From positions 2,567 through 66,566 of the forward strand of contig MKUE01000105.1 in assembly GCA_001897675.1 (NCBI GenBank): a stretch of 64,000 nucleotides of DNA. Reading direction: 5' to 3'. The position numbers were made by a program, and so were the translations under genes. Below the pieces are notes generated by a model that saw only the letters and a list, made by a program, of their open reading frames with translations, was not told where the DNA came from and searched no databases. Positions 52,581 to 58,825 of this stretch are shown here, piece after piece; within the stretch, counting starts at the first letter, position 1, and the number at the start of each line of letters is the position of its first letter. This stretch comes from Thiobacillus sp. 65-1059 (GTDB lineage Bacteria; Pseudomonadota; Gammaproteobacteria; Burkholderiales; Thiobacillaceae).

Positions 52581-54212
52581 ATGAAAACCTACATCGTCGG
52601 CGGCGCAGTGCGGGATCGGTTGCTGGGTCTGCCGCTGGCCGACCGCGACTACGTCGTCGTCGGCGCCACGCCCGACGACATGATCGCGCTGGGCTACCAG
52701 CCGGTCGGCAAGGATTTCCCCGTCTTCCTGCATCCGCAAACCCACGAGGAATACGCCCTGGCGCGCACCGAGCGCAAATCCGGGCGTGGCTACAAGGGAT
52801 TCAAGGTGTACGCCGCGCCGGACGTCACCCTGGAAGAGGATCTGCGCCGCCGCGACCTCACCATCAACGCGATGGCCGAGGACGAGGCCGGCACGCTGAT
52901 CGACCCCCATGGCGGGCAGGACGATCTGGCCGCGCGCGTCTTCCGCCATGTGAGCGAGACGTTTGCCGAGGACCCGGTGCGCATCCTGCGGGTGGCGCGC
53001 TTTGCCGCCCGTTTCACCGGCTTCGTCGTGGCGCCGGAAACCAACGCGCTGATGCGGCGGATGGTGGACAACGGCGAAGTCGATGCGCTGGTGCCCGAGC
53101 GGGTGTGGCAGGAAGTCGCGCGCGGCCTGATGGAAGCGCAGCCGTCGCGCATGTTCCAGGTGCTGCGCGACTGCGGCGCGCTGGCCCGCCTCTTCCCCGA
53201 AATCGACCGCCTGTTCGGGGTGCCGCAGCCGCCCGCGCATCATCCCGAAGTCGATACCGGCGTGCATGTCATGCGGGTGGTCGACTGGGCGGCGCGCCAG
53301 GGTTTCAGCCTGGCGGTGCGCTTCGCGGCATTGACCCACGATCTCGGCAAGGGCACGACGCCGCCCGAGTGTTGGCCCAAGCATCATGGCCACGAAGCCA
53401 GGAGCGCAGACCTGGTGCGTGCGCTGAGCGAGCGCATCCGCGTGCCGGTCGACTGCCGCGAGCTTGCCGTCGCGGTGGCGCGCGAACACGGCAACGTCCA
53501 CCGGGCGCTGGAATTGCGTCCCGGCACGGTCGTCGAACTGCTGGAACGCGTCGATGCCTTCCGCCGCCCGGAGCGTTTCGAGGCGTTTCTGCAGGCCTGC
53601 GAATGCGATTTCCGCGGCCGTCCCGGCTACGAGGACAAGGCGTTTCCCGCGCCAGGGCATCTGCGGCAGGCGCTGCAGGCGGCGCAGACCATCGATGCCG
53701 CCGAGGTGGCGCGCAATGCCGACCCTGCGCGGATCCGCGACGCGATCTTTCAGGCACGGACGCGGGCGGTGACAGCCTGGCGCGCTCGCGCGGCAGAGCC
53801 GCGGTGGGAACACTTCCCGCACCAGGCCGACATGGGGGTGCGCGGCGTCGGCCCCACCCTGGCGGCCGCGTTCGAACAGGCAGCACTGGCGATGACCGCC
53901 GTGGTGACCGACCCGGCCCGCGTGGCGCCCGACGAAGCGGTGGAAATCCGCTGCGAGGCGCCGGACGAAGAACTGCTGCTGGCCGACTGGCTGAACGCGC
54001 TGATCCTCGAGATGGCGGCGCGCCGCATGCTGTTCAGCCGCTTCGAAGTCAGTCTGCACGGGCATGGCCTGCATGCCACCGCATGGGGCGAGCCGGTCGA
54101 TCCGGACAAGCACCAGCCGGCCGTCGAGATCAAGGGCGCCACCTATACTGAGTTGAAAGCGGGGAGGGACGAATCCGGGCGATGGCTGGCCCAGTGCGTA
54201 GTGGACGTGTGA
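52581..54212 (+). CDS. cca: Multifunctional CCA-adding enzyme (nucleotidyltransferase + HD domain) fused in frame to a C-terminal archease domain
   Basis: 543 aa with no internal stop. Residues 1 to about 405 are collinear with E. coli Cca ([42 protein letters not shown]). Residues from about 406 to 543 carry archease signatures ([16 protein letters not shown]..., [11 protein letters not shown]). Confidence 0.88.
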
Positions 54213-54213
54213 A

Positions 54214-55644
54214 ATGAACCTCGCTCTGTTCAAGCAGGTGTCGGATGTCGAATGGCGCGTCGCGCCGTTCGGGAAAATGCGCGTGCCGGCGGTGGTCTAT
54301 GCCGACCAGGCGCTGGTGCGCGAAATGGACGAGAAAGTCTTCGCGCAGCTTGTCAACGTCGCCACCCTGCCGGGTATTGTTGATGCCGCCTACGCCATGC
54401 CCGACGCGCACTGGGGCTATGGCTTCCCGATCGGCGGCGTGGCGGCGTTCGATGCCGACGCGGGCGGGGTGGTTTCCGCCGGCGGGGTGGGCTTCGACAT
54501 TTCCTGCGGCGTGCGCACCCTGCACACCGGATTGAAAGCCGCGGATATCGCGCCGCTCAAGCAGCGGCTGGCCGAGCGCCTGTTCGCCCGGATTCCGGCG
54601 GGGCTCGGCAGCACCGGCCAATTGCGCCTCGATGCCGGCGAGATGGACGCGATGCTGCGCGGCGGCGCGCGCTGGGCGGTCGAGCGCGGCTACGGCAGCG
54701 AGGCCGACCTCGACCGCATCGAGGAGCGCGGCTGCATGGCCGGCGCCGAACCCGGCAACGTGTCCGAGCACGCCAAGCGCCGCCAGCGCGACGAAATCGG
54801 CACCCTCGGCTCCGGCAACCATTACCTCGAATTGCAGGAAATCGCCGAAATCTACGACAGCAAGGCGGCCGACCGTTTCCGCCTGCGCCAGGGCGAGGTG
54901 GTGGTCAGCATCCACTGCGGCTCGCGCGGGCTGGGGCATCAGATCGGCACCGAATTCCTCAGGCAGATGGTGATCGCCGCGCCGGGCCACGGCATCGAGC
55001 TGCCCGACCGCGAACTCGCCTGCGCGCCGATCCTTTCTCCCCTCGGCCAGGCCTACCTCGGCGCCATGCGCGCAGCGGTCAACTGCGCCCTGGCCAATCG
55101 CCAGGTCATCACCCAGCTTGCCCGCAAGGTGTTCGCCGACATCGTGCCGGGAACCCATCTCACCCTGATCTACGACGTGTCGCACAACACCTGCAAGCAG
55201 GAGACGCACACGGTCGGCGGCCAGACACGCCGCCTCTATGTGCACCGCAAGGGCGCGACGCGCGCCTTTGGCCCCGGCCACCCGGCGCTGCCGGGCGAGC
55301 TGCGCGACATCGGCCAGCCGGTGCTGATCGGCGGCAGCATGGGCACCGCGTCCTACATCCTGGCCGGCACCGAAACCGGCGTGACGCGCGCCTTCAGTTC
55401 CGCCTGCCATGGCGCCGGGCGCGCCATGAGCCGCCACCAGGCCGCCCGTCAGTGGCACGGCCGGACACTGGTGGACGAACTCGCCGGCCGGGGCATCCTG
55501 ATCCGCAGTCCGTCGCTGCGCGGTGTGGCGGAAGAGGCTCCGGGCGCCTACAAGGACGTCAGCGCCGTGGTGGAGGCGGCCGATCGCGCCGGGCTGGCGC
55601 GCAAGGTGGCGAAGCTGAAGCCGCTGGTGTGCATCAAGGGCTGA
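54214..55644 (+). CDS. rtcB: RNA 3'-phosphate/2',3'-cyclic phosphate ligase RtcB (long, archaeal/metazoan-like type)
   Basis: 476 aa. MPDAHWGYGFPIGGV, GFDISCGVR, GSGNHYLE, HCGSRGLGHQ, and the SSACHGAGR nucleophile-His motif. It starts 1 nt after the cca-archease stop. Confidence 0.95.
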   Translation: MNLALFKQVSDVEWRVAPFGKMRVPAVVYADQALVREMDEKVFAQLVNVATLPGIVDAAYAMPDAHWGYGFPIGGVAAFDADAGGVVSAGGVGFDISCGVRTLHTGLKAADIAPLKQRLAERLFARIPAGLGSTGQLRLDAGEMDAMLRGGARWAVERGYGSEADLDRIEERGCMAGAEPGNVSEHAKRRQRDEIGTLGSGNHYLELQEIAEIYDSKAADRFRLRQGEVVVSIHCGSRGLGHQIGTEFLRQMVIAAPGHGIELPDRELACAPILSPLGQAYLGAMRAAVNCALANRQVITQLARKVFADIVPGTHLTLIYDVSHNTCKQETHTVGGQTRRLYVHRKGATRAFGPGHPALPGELRDIGQPVLIGGSMGTASYILAGTETGVTRAFSSACHGAGRAMSRHQAARQWHGRTLVDELAGRGILIRSPSLRGVAEEAPGAYKDVSAVVEAADRAGLARKVAKLKPLVCIKG

Positions 55645-55731
55645 ACGGGTTGGGCGAACGATGGCAAGGCGCGTGCCGGAACTGCGCTCCGCAGGCGCCG
55701 TCATATCCTCGAGCGCAGCGGTGTTTGCCTG

Positions 55732-55767
55732 CGTGCCGGATTGAGTGCCCGTGCCGGGTTGATGGCG
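55732..55767. repeat. Tandem 18-bp direct repeat (CGTGCCGGATTGAGTGCC / CGTGCCGGGTTGATGGCG) upstream of fpr
   Basis: 14 of 18 positions are identical by eye. A third CGTGCCGGA core occurs at about 55672-55680. Confidence 0.6.
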
Positions 55768-55791
55768 CAAGCAGGAGTCCACGGAAAAATC

Positions 55792-56538
55792 ATGCCCTAC
55801 AGCGAACAAACGGTACGGTCGGTGCGCCCATGGTCGAACCGGACCTTCAGCTTCACGCTCAGCCGCCCGCAGGATTTCGCGTTCGAAAACGGTGAATTCG
55901 TCACTCTCGGGTTGAAGCGCGAAGGTAAGCTGGTGGCGCGCGCCTATTCCATCGTCTCCACCCCCGACCGCGACTATCTGGAATTCCTCAGCATCCATAT
56001 GCCGGACGGCCCGCTGACCAGCCAGCTGGTTCGCATCCGGCCCGGCGACAGCGTGTGGGTCAACAGCAAGGCGACCGGCTCGCTCACGCTCAACCACGTG
56101 CTGCCCGGGCGCACGCTGTACATGCTCGCCAGCGGCACCGGACTGGCGCCGTTCATGAGCCTGATCCGCGACCCCGAACTCTATGCGCGCTATGAGCACG
56201 TGGTGCTGGTGCATTCGGTGCGCACGGCGGCCGAACTGGCCTACCGCGACGAGATCGAGGCGCTGGCCGATGCCAAGCTGCATTACGTGCCGACCGTGAC
56301 GCGCGAGCCTTTCCCCACCCCCCAGCGCGGCAGCGACCTGTTCCGATCCGGCGAGCTGTCGCAGCGTCTCGGCCTGCCCGCGCCGGACCCCGCGCAGGAC
56401 CGGGTGATGGTCTGCGGCAACCCGGACATGACGCGCGAACTGACCCGCCACCTCAAGGACGCGGGCTGGACGCCGACCAATCACCGCGGGATCGGCAACT
56501 TCACCACCGAACTCGCGTTCGTCGTCCACCACGAATAA
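55792..56538 (+). CDS. fpr: Ferredoxin--NADP(+) reductase
   Basis: Trimmed to ATG 55792 (248 aa). RAYSIVS FAD motif, MLASGTGLAPF NADP motif, and a C-terminal ...ELAFVVHHE. Confidence 0.9.
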   Translation: MPYSEQTVRSVRPWSNRTFSFTLSRPQDFAFENGEFVTLGLKREGKLVARAYSIVSTPDRDYLEFLSIHMPDGPLTSQLVRIRPGDSVWVNSKATGSLTLNHVLPGRTLYMLASGTGLAPFMSLIRDPELYARYEHVVLVHSVRTAAELAYRDEIEALADAKLHYVPTVTREPFPTPQRGSDLFRSGELSQRLGLPAPDPAQDRVMVCGNPDMTRELTRHLKDAGWTPTNHRGIGNFTTELAFVVHHE

Positions 56539-56580: not shown

Positions 56581-58596
56581 TTAGCGGCTGCCGGTCCGCT
56601 CCCGCAACTCGGTCTGGGCCGAAGCGGGGATGCCGGGCGTTCGCTGTGCGGGCGGAAGCTGTTCTTCGTCGCGATACAGGCCATGACGAAACACGTGCGC
56701 CGCATGCTGATAGAACGCGGTCGCTTCCTGCTGCAGCGCCGGGTCGGCGCGCGGTGCCACGGGGAGGTTCTGCGCATCGACGGCGAAGACTTCCGCCTTG
56801 CGCCGGGGCTGCAACACGGCGAGGCGGCCGTTTTTCAGATAGCCCAGCGTCTGGTAGTTGGCGACGAAGGCGCGGTCGCCCGCTGGCGGGGCATGCAGGA
56901 TATCCCGCCCGAAGAACTTGCTGTAGTAGCGCATCCCGAGCATGCCCAGCAGCGTGGGCGCAATGTCGATCTGCGACATGAGCCGGTCCACCCGCTGCGG
57001 CTTGAGGTGCTTGGGCGCATAGAAAAACAGCGGAATCCGGTACTTGTCCACCGGGATGTTCACCGTGCCGCGCGCATTGGCGCCATGGTCTGCGGTGACG
57101 ACGAACAGCGTGTCGTCGAACCAGTCCTGCTTGCGCGCCTCGGCGAGCAGATGGCCGATGGCGTAGTCGGCATACTTCACCGCGCCCTCGCGCCCGCTGC
57201 CGGAGGGGATGTCGATACGGCCCGCCGGGTAAGTGTAGGGGCGATGGTTGCTGGTGGTCATGACGTGCACGAAGAACGGCCGCGAACCCTCGCCGCGCTG
57301 CGCCGAACGATGGATATGGCCGAGAGTGTCGAGCACGTGGTCGAACAGGAACTCGTCAGCGACGCCCCAGATATTGGCGAAACCAATGCGTTCGGCGGGA
57401 ATGTCGGTGCGATCGATGGTGCGGTAGTCGTTGCGGTCGAAGAAGGCGTTCATGTTGTCGAAATAGCCGTAGCCGCCGTAGGCGAAGCGCACTTCGTAGT
57501 TGAAGTCCTCGAGCACGCTGCCGAGCGAGAACAGTTCCTCATTCCTGGGGCGCCGCACGATCGACTGGCCAGGCGTCGGCGGCAACGCCAGTGCCAGCGC
57601 CTCCAGGCCGCGCACGGTGCGGTTGCCGGTGGCGTAAACGTTCGAGAACCACAGGCCTTCCCGCGCCAGCCGGTCCAGGTTCGGCGTCAGGCCGCGCGGG
57701 TTGCCATAAGCGCCGAGAAATTCCGCGCCCATGCTTTCGATGCTGATCAGCACGACGTTGAGGCGTTGCGGCGCCGCGGCTGGCGGGATCAGCCGCTCCA
57801 CCCCGCCGGCAGGCTGTTTCTCTAGCCACGCGCCGCCGTCCTGCGCCAGCGTGCGGCGCACGATGGAGAAAGCCTGCTGCGGCGGCAGCGCGGCATAGAA
57901 ACGTTCGAAATCCAGCTCGTTGCGGCGGTTGGCGGCGAAGAAGGAATAGATGCCATTGCCGGCCAGTTCGTTGACGTGATCGCTGGCGCTGCGGTTCTTG
58001 AGATCGCCATCGAGGCCAGCGGCCAGCCCCGCCACGGCGACCGCCCAGGCGCCGAGCCAGAGCAGACGGGAACGCCAGGGCCAGGGCGCGCGGGCTGCGG
58101 CATAGATGCGGCGCATGAAAGGCAGCCACCACAGCACCGCCAGGACCGCGAGTCCGGCAAGGACTTTCCCGACCGGATAGCTCTCGCGGATGTTGCCGAT
58201 GACCTCGTGCGAATAGAGCAGATAATCGACGGCAATGAAATTGAAGCGGGCGCCGAACTCTTCCCAGAAGAACCATTCCGACACCGCGGTCAGCAGCAAC
58301 ACGAACGTCAGCGCGATCAGCAGCACCATGCCGGCTGCGCGCATCACATGCCAGCGCGCGAAGCGGTCCGGCATCAGCGCCAGCAGCAGGGCCACCGGCG
58401 CTGCGAAATACGCGGCCGCCGTCAGATCGAACAGCAGGCCGAAGCCGAAAATCTGTACATAGGAAGCGATGCCCGGTGGAATGCTCACCTCCGGCCGCGT
58501 CATCAGGACAATGCGGGTCGCCATGGCGAACACGATCAGGGTCAGGGCGAGGGCGAAAGCAGGGAGCAGGCGCTGCGGGGGGGAGGCGATCGGCAT
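56581..58596 (-). CDS. LTA synthase / phosphoglycerol-transferase-like membrane sulfatase-family protein
   Basis: About 671 aa with 5 N-terminal TM helices and an extracytoplasmic alkaline-phosphatase/sulfatase domain (VVLISIESMGAEF..., VVTADHGA). The start is uncertain: ATG 58596, 58629 or the track's 58665, none with a clear SD. Confidence 0.8.
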   Translation of the reverse strand: MPIASPPQRLLPAFALALTLIVFAMATRIVLMTRPEVSIPPGIASYVQIFGFGLLFDLTAAAYFAAPVALLLALMPDRFARWHVMRAAGMVLLIALTFVLLLTAVSEWFFWEEFGARFNFIAVDYLLYSHEVIGNIRESYPVGKVLAGLAVLAVLWWLPFMRRIYAAARAPWPWRSRLLWLGAWAVAVAGLAAGLDGDLKNRSASDHVNELAGNGIYSFFAANRRNELDFERFYAALPPQQAFSIVRRTLAQDGGAWLEKQPAGGVERLIPPAAAPQRLNVVLISIESMGAEFLGAYGNPRGLTPNLDRLAREGLWFSNVYATGNRTVRGLEALALALPPTPGQSIVRRPRNEELFSLGSVLEDFNYEVRFAYGGYGYFDNMNAFFDRNDYRTIDRTDIPAERIGFANIWGVADEFLFDHVLDTLGHIHRSAQRGEGSRPFFVHVMTTSNHRPYTYPAGRIDIPSGSGREGAVKYADYAIGHLLAEARKQDWFDDTLFVVTADHGANARGTVNIPVDKYRIPLFFYAPKHLKPQRVDRLMSQIDIAPTLLGMLGMRYYSKFFGRDILHAPPAGDRAFVANYQTLGYLKNGRLAVLQPRRKAEVFAVDAQNLPVAPRADPALQQEATAFYQHAAHVFRHGLYRDEEQLPPAQRTPGIPASAQTELRERTGSR

Positions 58597-58825
58597 GGGC
58601 GTGGAACTGTTCCGGACAGGGGGAGGCATCGTATGCCAAGTCGGCGCGGCGCTCCAGCCGGACACAGCGGAATCAGGGCCGATCCGCGAGAAACGCCTCG
58701 CTGCAGCCGGTCAACCATCGCGCATGCCGGCAACGTCCCCGCCAGCATGCGGCTCCAGGTGCGCAGGCCGGAGCCCGCGCCCAGGCATTGAAACCGGGCC
58801 AGGGAAGCCCGGGCCCGGTTGCGAT

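Follow-up and report, generated by a model that had tools for sequence, protein, structure and literature searches.

Does a CCA-adding enzyme (Cca) that is joined in frame to archease, directly ahead of the gene for the RNA ligase RtcB, represent a dedicated tRNA-repair machine, or does it carry two independent functions that have come to share one chain? The question is raised by a 64,000-nucleotide stretch of Thiobacillus sp. 65-1059 (contig MKUE01000105.1 of assembly GCA_001897675.1, positions 2,567 to 66,566; hereafter, the window), in which a single open reading frame (ORF), cca::archease, is followed at once by rtcB. The comparison of this locus with those of its relatives shows that the fusion is real and maintained by selection; it looks like a lineage-specific by-product of a deletion, and not like a purpose-built tRNA-repair machine. 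Cca::archease can be described as an uncharacterised, lineage-restricted variant of the known archease-RtcB pair, whose sequences are already public and annotated only as Cca.

Organisation of the fused gene and the neighbouring ligase gene

The fused gene comprises 543 codons followed by TGA, with no interruption (the coordinates of this and the other features are collected in Table 1), and its product is identical to GenBank entry OJW47056.1, which is encoded on a 1.39-Mb contig and annotated as a multifunctional CCA enzyme only. The N-terminal module is matched by the NCBIfam equivalog NF008137 ('multifunctional CCA addition/repair protein') with 647.5 bits, against a cut-off of 451, over positions 1-406 of the 409 in the model. 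It contains the Pfam domains PolyA_pol, PolyA_pol_RNAbd and HD, and its architecture includes a class II nucleotidyltransferase head, an RNA-binding body and an HD phosphohydrolase domain. The motifs of the head (GGAVRD at residues 7-12, DRD at 21-23 and RRDLTINA at 90-97) and those of the HD metal site (HHPE at 220 and THDLGK at 252, with the HD pair at 253-254) are invariant across 24 fused homologs, and the module is predicted to act as a CCA-adding enzyme with HD phosphohydrolase activity. The adjacency of cca to an upstream epimerase gene, seen in the window, is conserved across the Betaproteobacteria loci examined, including those of Paraburkholderia and Burkholderia. Gene calling by G+C content at third codon positions (GC3) gave 48 genes in the window, of which those around and beyond the locus were scanned with Pfam. 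Among these called genes, neither a second PolyA_pol-family gene nor a second archease was found, and the same holds for RtcA or any RTC-cyclase domain and for RtcR or any Sigma54_activat protein. The only regulators seen in the window are a TetR-family protein and an OmpR-type two-component pair.

The Cca module is connected to archease by a linker of about seven residues, and among fused homologs about 2-8 residues lie between the conserved flanks 'AWR' and 'WEHF'. The archease module is matched by the whole of Pfam model PF01951 (positions 1-136 of 136, E 1.2e-39; 136 bits, with the cut-off at 25). It can be aligned from end to end with the P. horikoshii archease 4n2p (93 bits), and also with human archease 8btx. 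Its motifs are WEHFPHQAD (409), EIKGATY (516) and the C-terminal CVVDV. While archease usually occurs as a stand-alone protein of ~140-180 aa, here it has no such form and is the C-terminal domain of a 543-aa protein. In the human RTCB-archease complex, archease provides D51, D178 and the carboxylate at the end of I179 as ligands of the third Mn2+, its K156 makes a contact to phosphate, and the substitutions D51A and K156A abolish guanylylation (PMC10944509). The corresponding residues of the fused protein are D417 (in HQAD), K518 (in EIKGATY), D542 and the carboxylate of V543, which align with human D51, K156, D178 and I179, respectively, and are invariant in fused homologs, the stop codon coming directly after V543. 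In human archease, too, the first strand is preceded by an N-terminal extension some tens of residues long, which indicates that this end of the protein is permissive. An AlphaFold2 model computed from an alignment of the 24 fused sequences reached a mean predicted local distance difference test score (pLDDT) of 61.8, with the archease part below 50, and was used neither for fold search nor for steric fit.

The product of rtcB carries the metal-ligand and nucleotidyl-histidine motifs of its family (GFDISCG at 93, GSGNHY at 199, SIHCGSRG at 232, VSHN at 322 and CHGAGR at 398). Its best solved relatives are TTHA1785 from T. thermophilus (507 bits) and the P. horikoshii RtcB (PH1602, 496 bits), and with PRK09588, a model of the E. 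coli type whose cut-off is 407, it scores 168 bits. The protein is of the long archaeal/eukaryal type and is predicted to be an RNA 3'-phosphate ligase. The T. thermophilus enzyme needs archease for multiple turnover (Desai et al., PMC4604427), and by likeness to it the window RtcB would depend on archease as well. The gap of 1 nt between archease and rtcB is shared by the fused loci L004, L005, L010 and L017 and by the unfused locus L009, whereas the other fused loci present gaps of 10 or ~40 nt with a GGAG-like motif; tight archease-rtcB coupling is therefore not a trait of the fusion.

These results agree with a first-pass annotation of the same DNA, made from its letters and ORFs alone, which had described one 543-codon ORF with rtcB starting 1 nt after its stop. 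The sequence reads in this way, all the motifs that had been listed were found again where they had been placed, and profile matches sustain the assignment of a Cca plus an archease, followed by a long-type RtcB. The statement that no rtcA, rtcR or sigma54-type regulator lies nearby holds for the called genes of the window, and the upstream neighbours it mentioned are Slt and an epimerase/NmrA-type short-chain dehydrogenase/reductase (SDR) by Pfam. Finally, the view that this is the main cca of the cell is in line with the conserved epimerase-cca position and with the lack of a second copy in the 64 kb covered.

Occurrence and maintenance of the fusion

Proteins with all four Pfam domains on one chain were retrieved from ENA, JGI, NCBI and Logan and form ~63 clusters at 90% identity, which are 76-96% identical to the query; the matches with a named source come from Thiobacillus or Hydrogenophilales. 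With one genome taken per GTDB species, the fused gene is present in 8 of the 26 Thiobacillus-clade species genomes (L010-L017). In 11 independently assembled fused loci the ORF is intact, with 541-548 codons, and ends in QCV(V/I)DV. At each of these 11 loci rtcB lies 3' of the fusion, although the rtcB genes of L013 and L016 were not cleanly recovered and may carry assembly frameshifts. On the question, posed with the initial description, of how far the architecture extends and whether rtcB always accompanies it, the fusion was found in a Thiobacillus subgroup, with rtcB at all the fused loci read. Archease adjoins cca in none of 54 other betaproteobacterial cca loci.

Among the 11 fused genes, the ratio of nonsynonymous to synonymous substitution (dN/dS) amounts to 0.155 in the Cca part and 0.176 in the archease part, compared with 0.51 in the linker. 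Purifying selection acts on both halves and is relaxed on the linker. That the fusion is an artefact, due to a stop lost or a frameshift in this assembly, has next to no probability. It could be entertained on prior grounds only, many of the related sequences coming from metagenome-assembled genomes, but the same architecture recurs, at 76-97% identity, in 11 independently assembled loci and in the ~63 clusters, which stem from four data sources, and purifying selection is detected at the codon level in the regions that flank the junction. The caveat of an assembly error, raised together with the initial description, is thereby lifted by independent recurrence.

The literature searched, the coverage of which is incomplete, describes neither a Cca-archease fusion nor an archease from Thiobacillus, and the initial remark that no characterised fusion of this kind was known stands within the same limit. 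Residues 215-543 were also compared with 1.84 billion representative proteins, and among the best 150 matches, which were evaluated, there was no independent Cca::archease fusion; the Thiobacillus fusion is not listed as a representative of its own in that search, so distant Cca::archease fusions may exist. Two proteins considered as further Cca::archease candidates, P0350 (548 aa) and P0349 (541 aa), were rejected: in one of them the C-terminal tail of Cca is duplicated, and in the other the tail is probably frameshifted.

Probable origin of the fusion by deletion

In Thiobacillus, cca is found within the conserved gene order zapD - yacG - rpiA - ilvA - slt - epimerase - cca, and from there on the locus can present four layouts, termed A to D in Table 1. 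In layout A, cca and archease are separated by orfX, the product of which is a conserved lipoprotein with a signal peptide and an LVGC lipobox; it has no Pfam match even at E = 1. The flanks of orfX are richer in AT, which suggests that it has its own promoter.

According to blastn alignments of L006 and L009, layout A is collinear with the window except for ~600 bp that are extra in A. The additional segment holds the last cca codons and their stop, orfX, and the archease ATG with the residues 'MIAAR'. In the window, 11 nt at 53789-53799 stand in for these ~600 bp, the blastn break falling at 53788/53800. Since archease stands on its own in layout A and in Sulfuricella, as it does in most other relatives, the simplest reading is the in-frame deletion of an unrelated gene. 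The ancestral layout was likely cca - lipoprotein gene - archease - rtcB, from which an in-frame deletion of ~0.6 kb would have taken out the lipoprotein gene together with the stop of cca and the start of archease. The resulting protein would have been tolerated because archease needs a free C-terminus and accepts N-terminal extensions. A single origin of the fusion was also considered and is not supported by either the Cca tree or the archease+rtcB tree.

Loss and decay among the nearest relatives

Among the proteins that consist of Cca only, the closest ones (404-406 aa, 93-95% identical) are nearer to the window protein than most fused homologs are. In layout C, as represented by L002, the blastn alignment of the DNA to the window breaks off after 53863, ~65 nt inside archease, and is taken up again at 56464. 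A new TAG stands at the linker proline codon of L002, and what follows it is a decayed piece of archease, 64 nt long and 73% identical (z = 8.8, a score reached in 0 of 2000 shuffles). This remnant beyond the new stop codon shows that the layout-C cca descends from the fused form by a 2.6-kb deletion.

The module has decayed a second time, independently and by a different route, in L093-L095, which are 96% identical to the window. Here a linker TGG has changed to TAG ('AAER', stop, 'WEHF'), giving a 407-aa Cca, and three internal deletions, equivalent to window positions 54005-54563, 54669-55282 and 55387-55520, have left behind an 85-aa archease fragment and a 54-aa RtcB fragment. Archease-rtcB is thus lost or degraded in two different ways among the nearest relatives, and Cca is back to its usual length each time. 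In layout D, where cca is directly followed by fnr, remnants of archease or rtcB were searched for and none were found.

Archease fusions to other enzymes

Archease is present in 47 of the best 150 matches to residues 215-543, and 11 of these 47 have another N-terminal partner of at least 100 aa. The ten partners identified are nicotinate phosphoribosyltransferase (NAPRTase), two phosphoribosyltransferases (PRTases), a HAD hydrolase, Pcm, cytidylate kinase (Cmk), an S-adenosylmethionine (SAM) methyltransferase, a LigT-type 2H phosphoesterase, a dienelactone hydrolase and a CrtO-like protein. In the 11 fusions archease, which is of one proteobacterial subfamily, is always C-terminal and never N-terminal, with the junction a few residues ahead of the (W/Y)EHF.H.AD motif, and in 43 of the 47 proteins it reaches the last residue, mostly as (V/I/L)DV. 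Such constancy can be explained by the binding of the catalytic Mn2+ through archease's own C-terminal carboxylate, as seen in the published RTCB-archease structure. NAPRTase::archease is directly followed by rtcB, and methyltransferase::archease by a truncated rtcB. Because archease has the same polarity with about ten other enzymes and needs a free C-terminus, its fusion to an upstream gene can be regarded as a general habit. The whole pattern points to archease-rtcB travelling as a pair in which archease readily fuses to the gene upstream, in a manner that is not specific to Cca.

A further Cca fusion was found in which the partner is RlaP (Table 1); no rtcB was found within 5 kb of it in L091. 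In the same locus, a MYG1-like exonuclease gene lies ~0.6 kb 3' of Cca::RlaP. As a separate observation on free archease, the archease-rtcB pair of Sulfuricella sp. T08 has an SOS-like neighbourhood, unrelated to cca: it is preceded by genes for an S24 peptidase (LexA/UmuD-like) and a dinB-like polymerase and followed by a DUF72 gene.

Interpretation of the fusion

The fusion probably represents two independent functions on one chain, made by deletion and with no special coupling between them. The N-terminal module is the ordinary E. coli-type CCA-adding enzyme of the cell and the C-terminal module a complete archease, and RtcB would be produced from the same transcript. By analogy with the human complex, the fused archease is expected to activate RtcB: its tip (D417, K518, D542 and the V543 carboxylate) would insert into the RtcB active site and supply the third Mn2+, and the histidine guanylylation driven in this way would allow the ligase to join ends with a 3'-phosphate or 2',3'-cyclic phosphate to 5'-OH ends over repeated rounds. 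Expression of archease-rtcB is probably constitutive, given that the pair would lie on the transcript of a housekeeping cca and that no RtcR or sigma54 control is nearby, and rtcB may be translationally coupled to the end of the fusion. A scan for consensus promoters and terminators between 49000 and 57000 gave nothing exceeding shuffled expectation, so transcription units are deduced from spacing only. The archease-rtcB part is dispensable and its loss has occurred repeatedly, yet the fusion persists under purifying selection. Its benefit is most likely obligatory co-expression at most, for which a dedicated Cca-RtcB complex is not required, and Cca and RtcB would then act without special coupling.

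Several observations weigh against this account. The direction from layout A to the fused form rests on parsimony, the trees being poorly resolved: the backbone of the Cca tree has bootstrap values of 7-43%, and in the archease+rtcB tree the layout-A clade branches within the fused lineages, with the window lineage as its sister (75% bootstrap). Several independent fusions, or the exchange of alleles by homologous recombination, are possible. Additionally, the fusion is kept in many species, with a mean synonymous divergence of ~0.6 among 11 fused genes, and this wide retention leaves room for a selective benefit. While the other archease fusions have 1-5 members per 90% cluster, the Cca fusion accounts for ~63 clusters and 8 species. 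Fusions that involve RNA-end enzymes are also found elsewhere, namely LigT::archease (P0337) and Cca::RlaP (P0318), from which the link of Cca to archease may not be random. As for a clash of Cca with RtcB docking, the AlphaFold model is too poor to judge it.

A more ambitious interpretation, proposed in the first-pass annotation, is that of a tRNA-repair hub, in which archease, through its tether to the tRNA-binding Cca, would direct the activation of RtcB to damaged tRNAs, and in which HD end healing, CCA rebuilding and ligation would be coupled in one complex as a constitutive defence against ribotoxins. The three activities do lie within ~3 kb with their catalytic residues intact, the fusion is under purifying selection in at least 8 species, fusions of LigT-type phosphoesterase to archease and of Cca to RlaP exist in other lineages, and no inducible RtcR control is seen in the window. 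Nevertheless, a hub is unlikely, and the proposal is weakened from several sides: the fusion is found only in part of one genus, an unrelated lipoprotein gene separates cca from archease in sister genomes, archease-rtcB has been discarded and cca kept in two sets of nearest relatives, and archease fuses generically, most of its partners elsewhere being unrelated to RNA. Moreover, the HD domain of Cca removes the 2',3'-cyclic or 3' phosphate that RtcB needs, so that the two enzymes would compete, and not cooperate, at one RNA end. It is rather improbable, too, that the fusion works as a functional tether, with archease on tRNA-bound Cca steering RtcB activation to broken tRNAs, or gating 3'-end trimming for CCA re-addition versus re-ligation. 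If true, this would represent a constitutive tRNA-repair complex without a known counterpart and, in a wider form of the idea, the capture of archease by upstream enzymes would be a general wiring of RtcB activation to housekeeping expression.

The two remaining explanations, each with a slim chance of being correct, concern what archease does and how it is made. Instead of RtcB, or besides it, archease might act on Cca itself by tuning its activity or solubility. A precedent is offered by a Pyrococcus tRNA m5C methyltransferase, for which archease was reported to be a chaperone or a specificity factor (2007 work as cited in PMC3973293 and PMC4275035), and a role as a general chaperone could lie behind the many enzyme::archease fusions. 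On the other hand, rtcB follows in 11 of 11 Cca::archease loci and also after the NAPRTase fusion, archease and rtcB decay together while Cca persists unchanged, and conservation in the fused domain falls on the very residues through which archease contacts RTCB, Mn2+ and GTP. The ORF could alternatively yield two products, with extra free archease arising from an internal start such as the GTG at V397. The RefSeq protein WP_296639696.1 (147 aa) corresponds to residues 397-543 of the fused ORF in a near-identical genome and begins at this internal GTG, and V397 is invariant among 24 fused proteins. The same valine, however, is kept in the tails of unfused Cca proteins (AVAAWR), so its conservation is explained by Cca; furthermore, no Shine-Dalgarno sequence is obvious by eye 5' of the GTG, there is no stop between the modules in 11 of 11 loci, and a start at the next methionine, M418, would delete the essential D417 motif.

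Relation to known systems

The nearest known system is the archease-rtcB operon of archaea and some bacteria, such as P. horikoshii and T. thermophilus (Desai et al. 2014, 2015; PMC3973293, PMC4604427), where archease is likewise located directly 5' of a long-type RtcB. The archease tip and the metal and histidine motifs of RtcB are conserved in the window. The difference lies in the form of archease, which in those operons is a stand-alone protein of ~140 aa and in the window the C-terminal domain of a housekeeping Cca, presumably driven from the cca transcript. From the side of Cca, the window protein has the same head and HD motifs as the E. coli-type enzyme (NF008137) and scores above the equivalog cut-off, but it adds a 135-aa archease after the normal C-terminal helix, where close relatives are 404-411 aa long. 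With the rtcBA genes and RtcR of E. coli, the window shares an RtcB-family ligase that joins 3'-P or 2',3'-cyclic-P to 5'-OH ends. Unlike that system, it has no rtcA and no rtcR in 64 kb, its RtcB is of the long type, and archease is present; to our knowledge, E. coli has no archease. The equivalents of the tip residues in the human RTCB-archease complex (PDB 8ODO, 8ODP; Gerber et al. 2024) are conserved in the window, where the N-terminal extension is a whole 45-kDa enzyme, attached via ~7 residues. Finally, the other enzyme::archease fusions have the same polarity as Cca::archease, end in ...DV and are followed by rtcB where this was checked.

If both of its halves work, the protein would be a natural case of an archease that is active while tethered to a 45-kDa enzyme, and it offers a ready test of the structural model, according to which the tip and the C-terminal carboxylate are all that matters in archease. 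It also provides, within one genus, dated intermediates of the birth of a fusion (deletion of the intervening gene), of its upkeep (selection on the halves and drift of the linker) and of its undoing (a stop in the linker and decay downstream). A new RNA-repair pathway is not established by the fusion alone.

The fusion is also relevant to annotation, in view of the Cca-only label in GenBank, the 147-aa 'archease' of RefSeq and the CCA labels given by JGI to free archeases. WP_296639696.1 (P0400) and OJW94253.1 (P0399) are both encoded on a 230,797-bp contig, and RefSeq carves the 'archease' out of the fused ORF. Many free archeases of 140 aa are labelled 'tRNA nucleotidyltransferase (CCA-adding enzyme)' by JGI, possibly through name transfer from the fused protein.

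Table 1. Features of the cca::archease-rtcB locus and of the loci and proteins compared with it. Positions are those of the window unless a locus is named.
Feature	Location	Strand	Basis or content
Fused ORF cca::archease	52581-54212	+	ORF reading
Cca module	residues 1-403, 52581..53789	+	NF008137, PF01743, PF12627, PF01966, motifs
Linker	residues ~402-408 (RAAEPR before W409), 53784..53804	+	variable among fused homologs
Archease module	residues 409-543, 53805..54209	+	PF01951, structure alignments
Junction TGA-A-ATG	54210..54216	+	fusion stop 1 nt ahead of rtcB start; read from sequence
rtcB	54214..55644, 476 aa	+	PF01139, 563 bits
FNR-like flavoprotein gene	55741-56538		FAD_binding_6 + NAD_binding_1
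Sulfatase-family membrane protein gene	56581-58665	-	between fnr and glycine-zipper genes
Antisense open frame, 1733 codons	49032-54233	-	across slt, epimerase gene and fusion gene
Layout A	L006, L009, L019, L020, L027		cca (409 aa) - orfX (138-154 aa) - archease (140 aa) - rtcB - fnr
Layout B	window, L004, L005, L010-L017		cca::archease - rtcB - fnr
Layout C	L001-L003		cca (406 aa), then convergent sulfatase gene
Layout D	several species		cca - fnr, without archease or rtcB
orfX	L006 4491-4955; L009 4492-4908; also L019, L020, L027		between cca and archease
Segment missing in layout C (e.g. L002)	53864..56463		most of archease, all of rtcB, most of FNR-like gene
Decayed region	L093 5180-5850 (also L094, L095)		equals window 53790-55740
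Enzyme::archease proteins	P0290, P0258, P0322, P0268, P0328, P0340, P0374, P0337, P0345, P0348, P0339		
Fused loci checked for downstream rtcB	L090 4001-5764; L092 4001-5089		rtcB follows in both
Cca::RlaP	L091 5001-7019, P0318, 672 aa		PolyA_pol + RNA-binding + HD + RlaP PF10127 ('RNA repair pathway DNA polymerase beta family')
archease-rtcB of Sulfuricella sp. T08, with neighbours	L008 3079-7845		

Neighbouring genes

According to the Pfam scan, the gene order around the fusion is, from 5' to 3', slt, the gene for the NAD-dependent epimerase/NmrA-type SDR, cca::archease, rtcB and an FNR-like gene. The wider surroundings are those of an ordinary core chromosome, with rpoD, dnaG, tsaD, trmD, rimM, ffh, pilBCD, coaE, zapD, rpiA, ilvA and slt. 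The FNR-like flavoprotein gene, directly 3' of rtcB, is probably the original neighbour of cca, since it adjoins cca directly in genomes without archease-rtcB. Human RTCB is protected by the flavoprotein PYROXD1, and a redox link between the FNR-like gene and RtcB is conceivable.

The long antisense open frame that runs across slt, the epimerase gene and the fusion gene is a product of high G+C content and does not represent a gene. Further downstream, on the reverse strand, the sulfatase-family membrane protein gene is present at its position in the window lineage and its closest relatives only (L002, L010 and L093). It does not occupy that position in L004, L005, L006 and L009, which indicates a lineage-specific insertion, or loss elsewhere.

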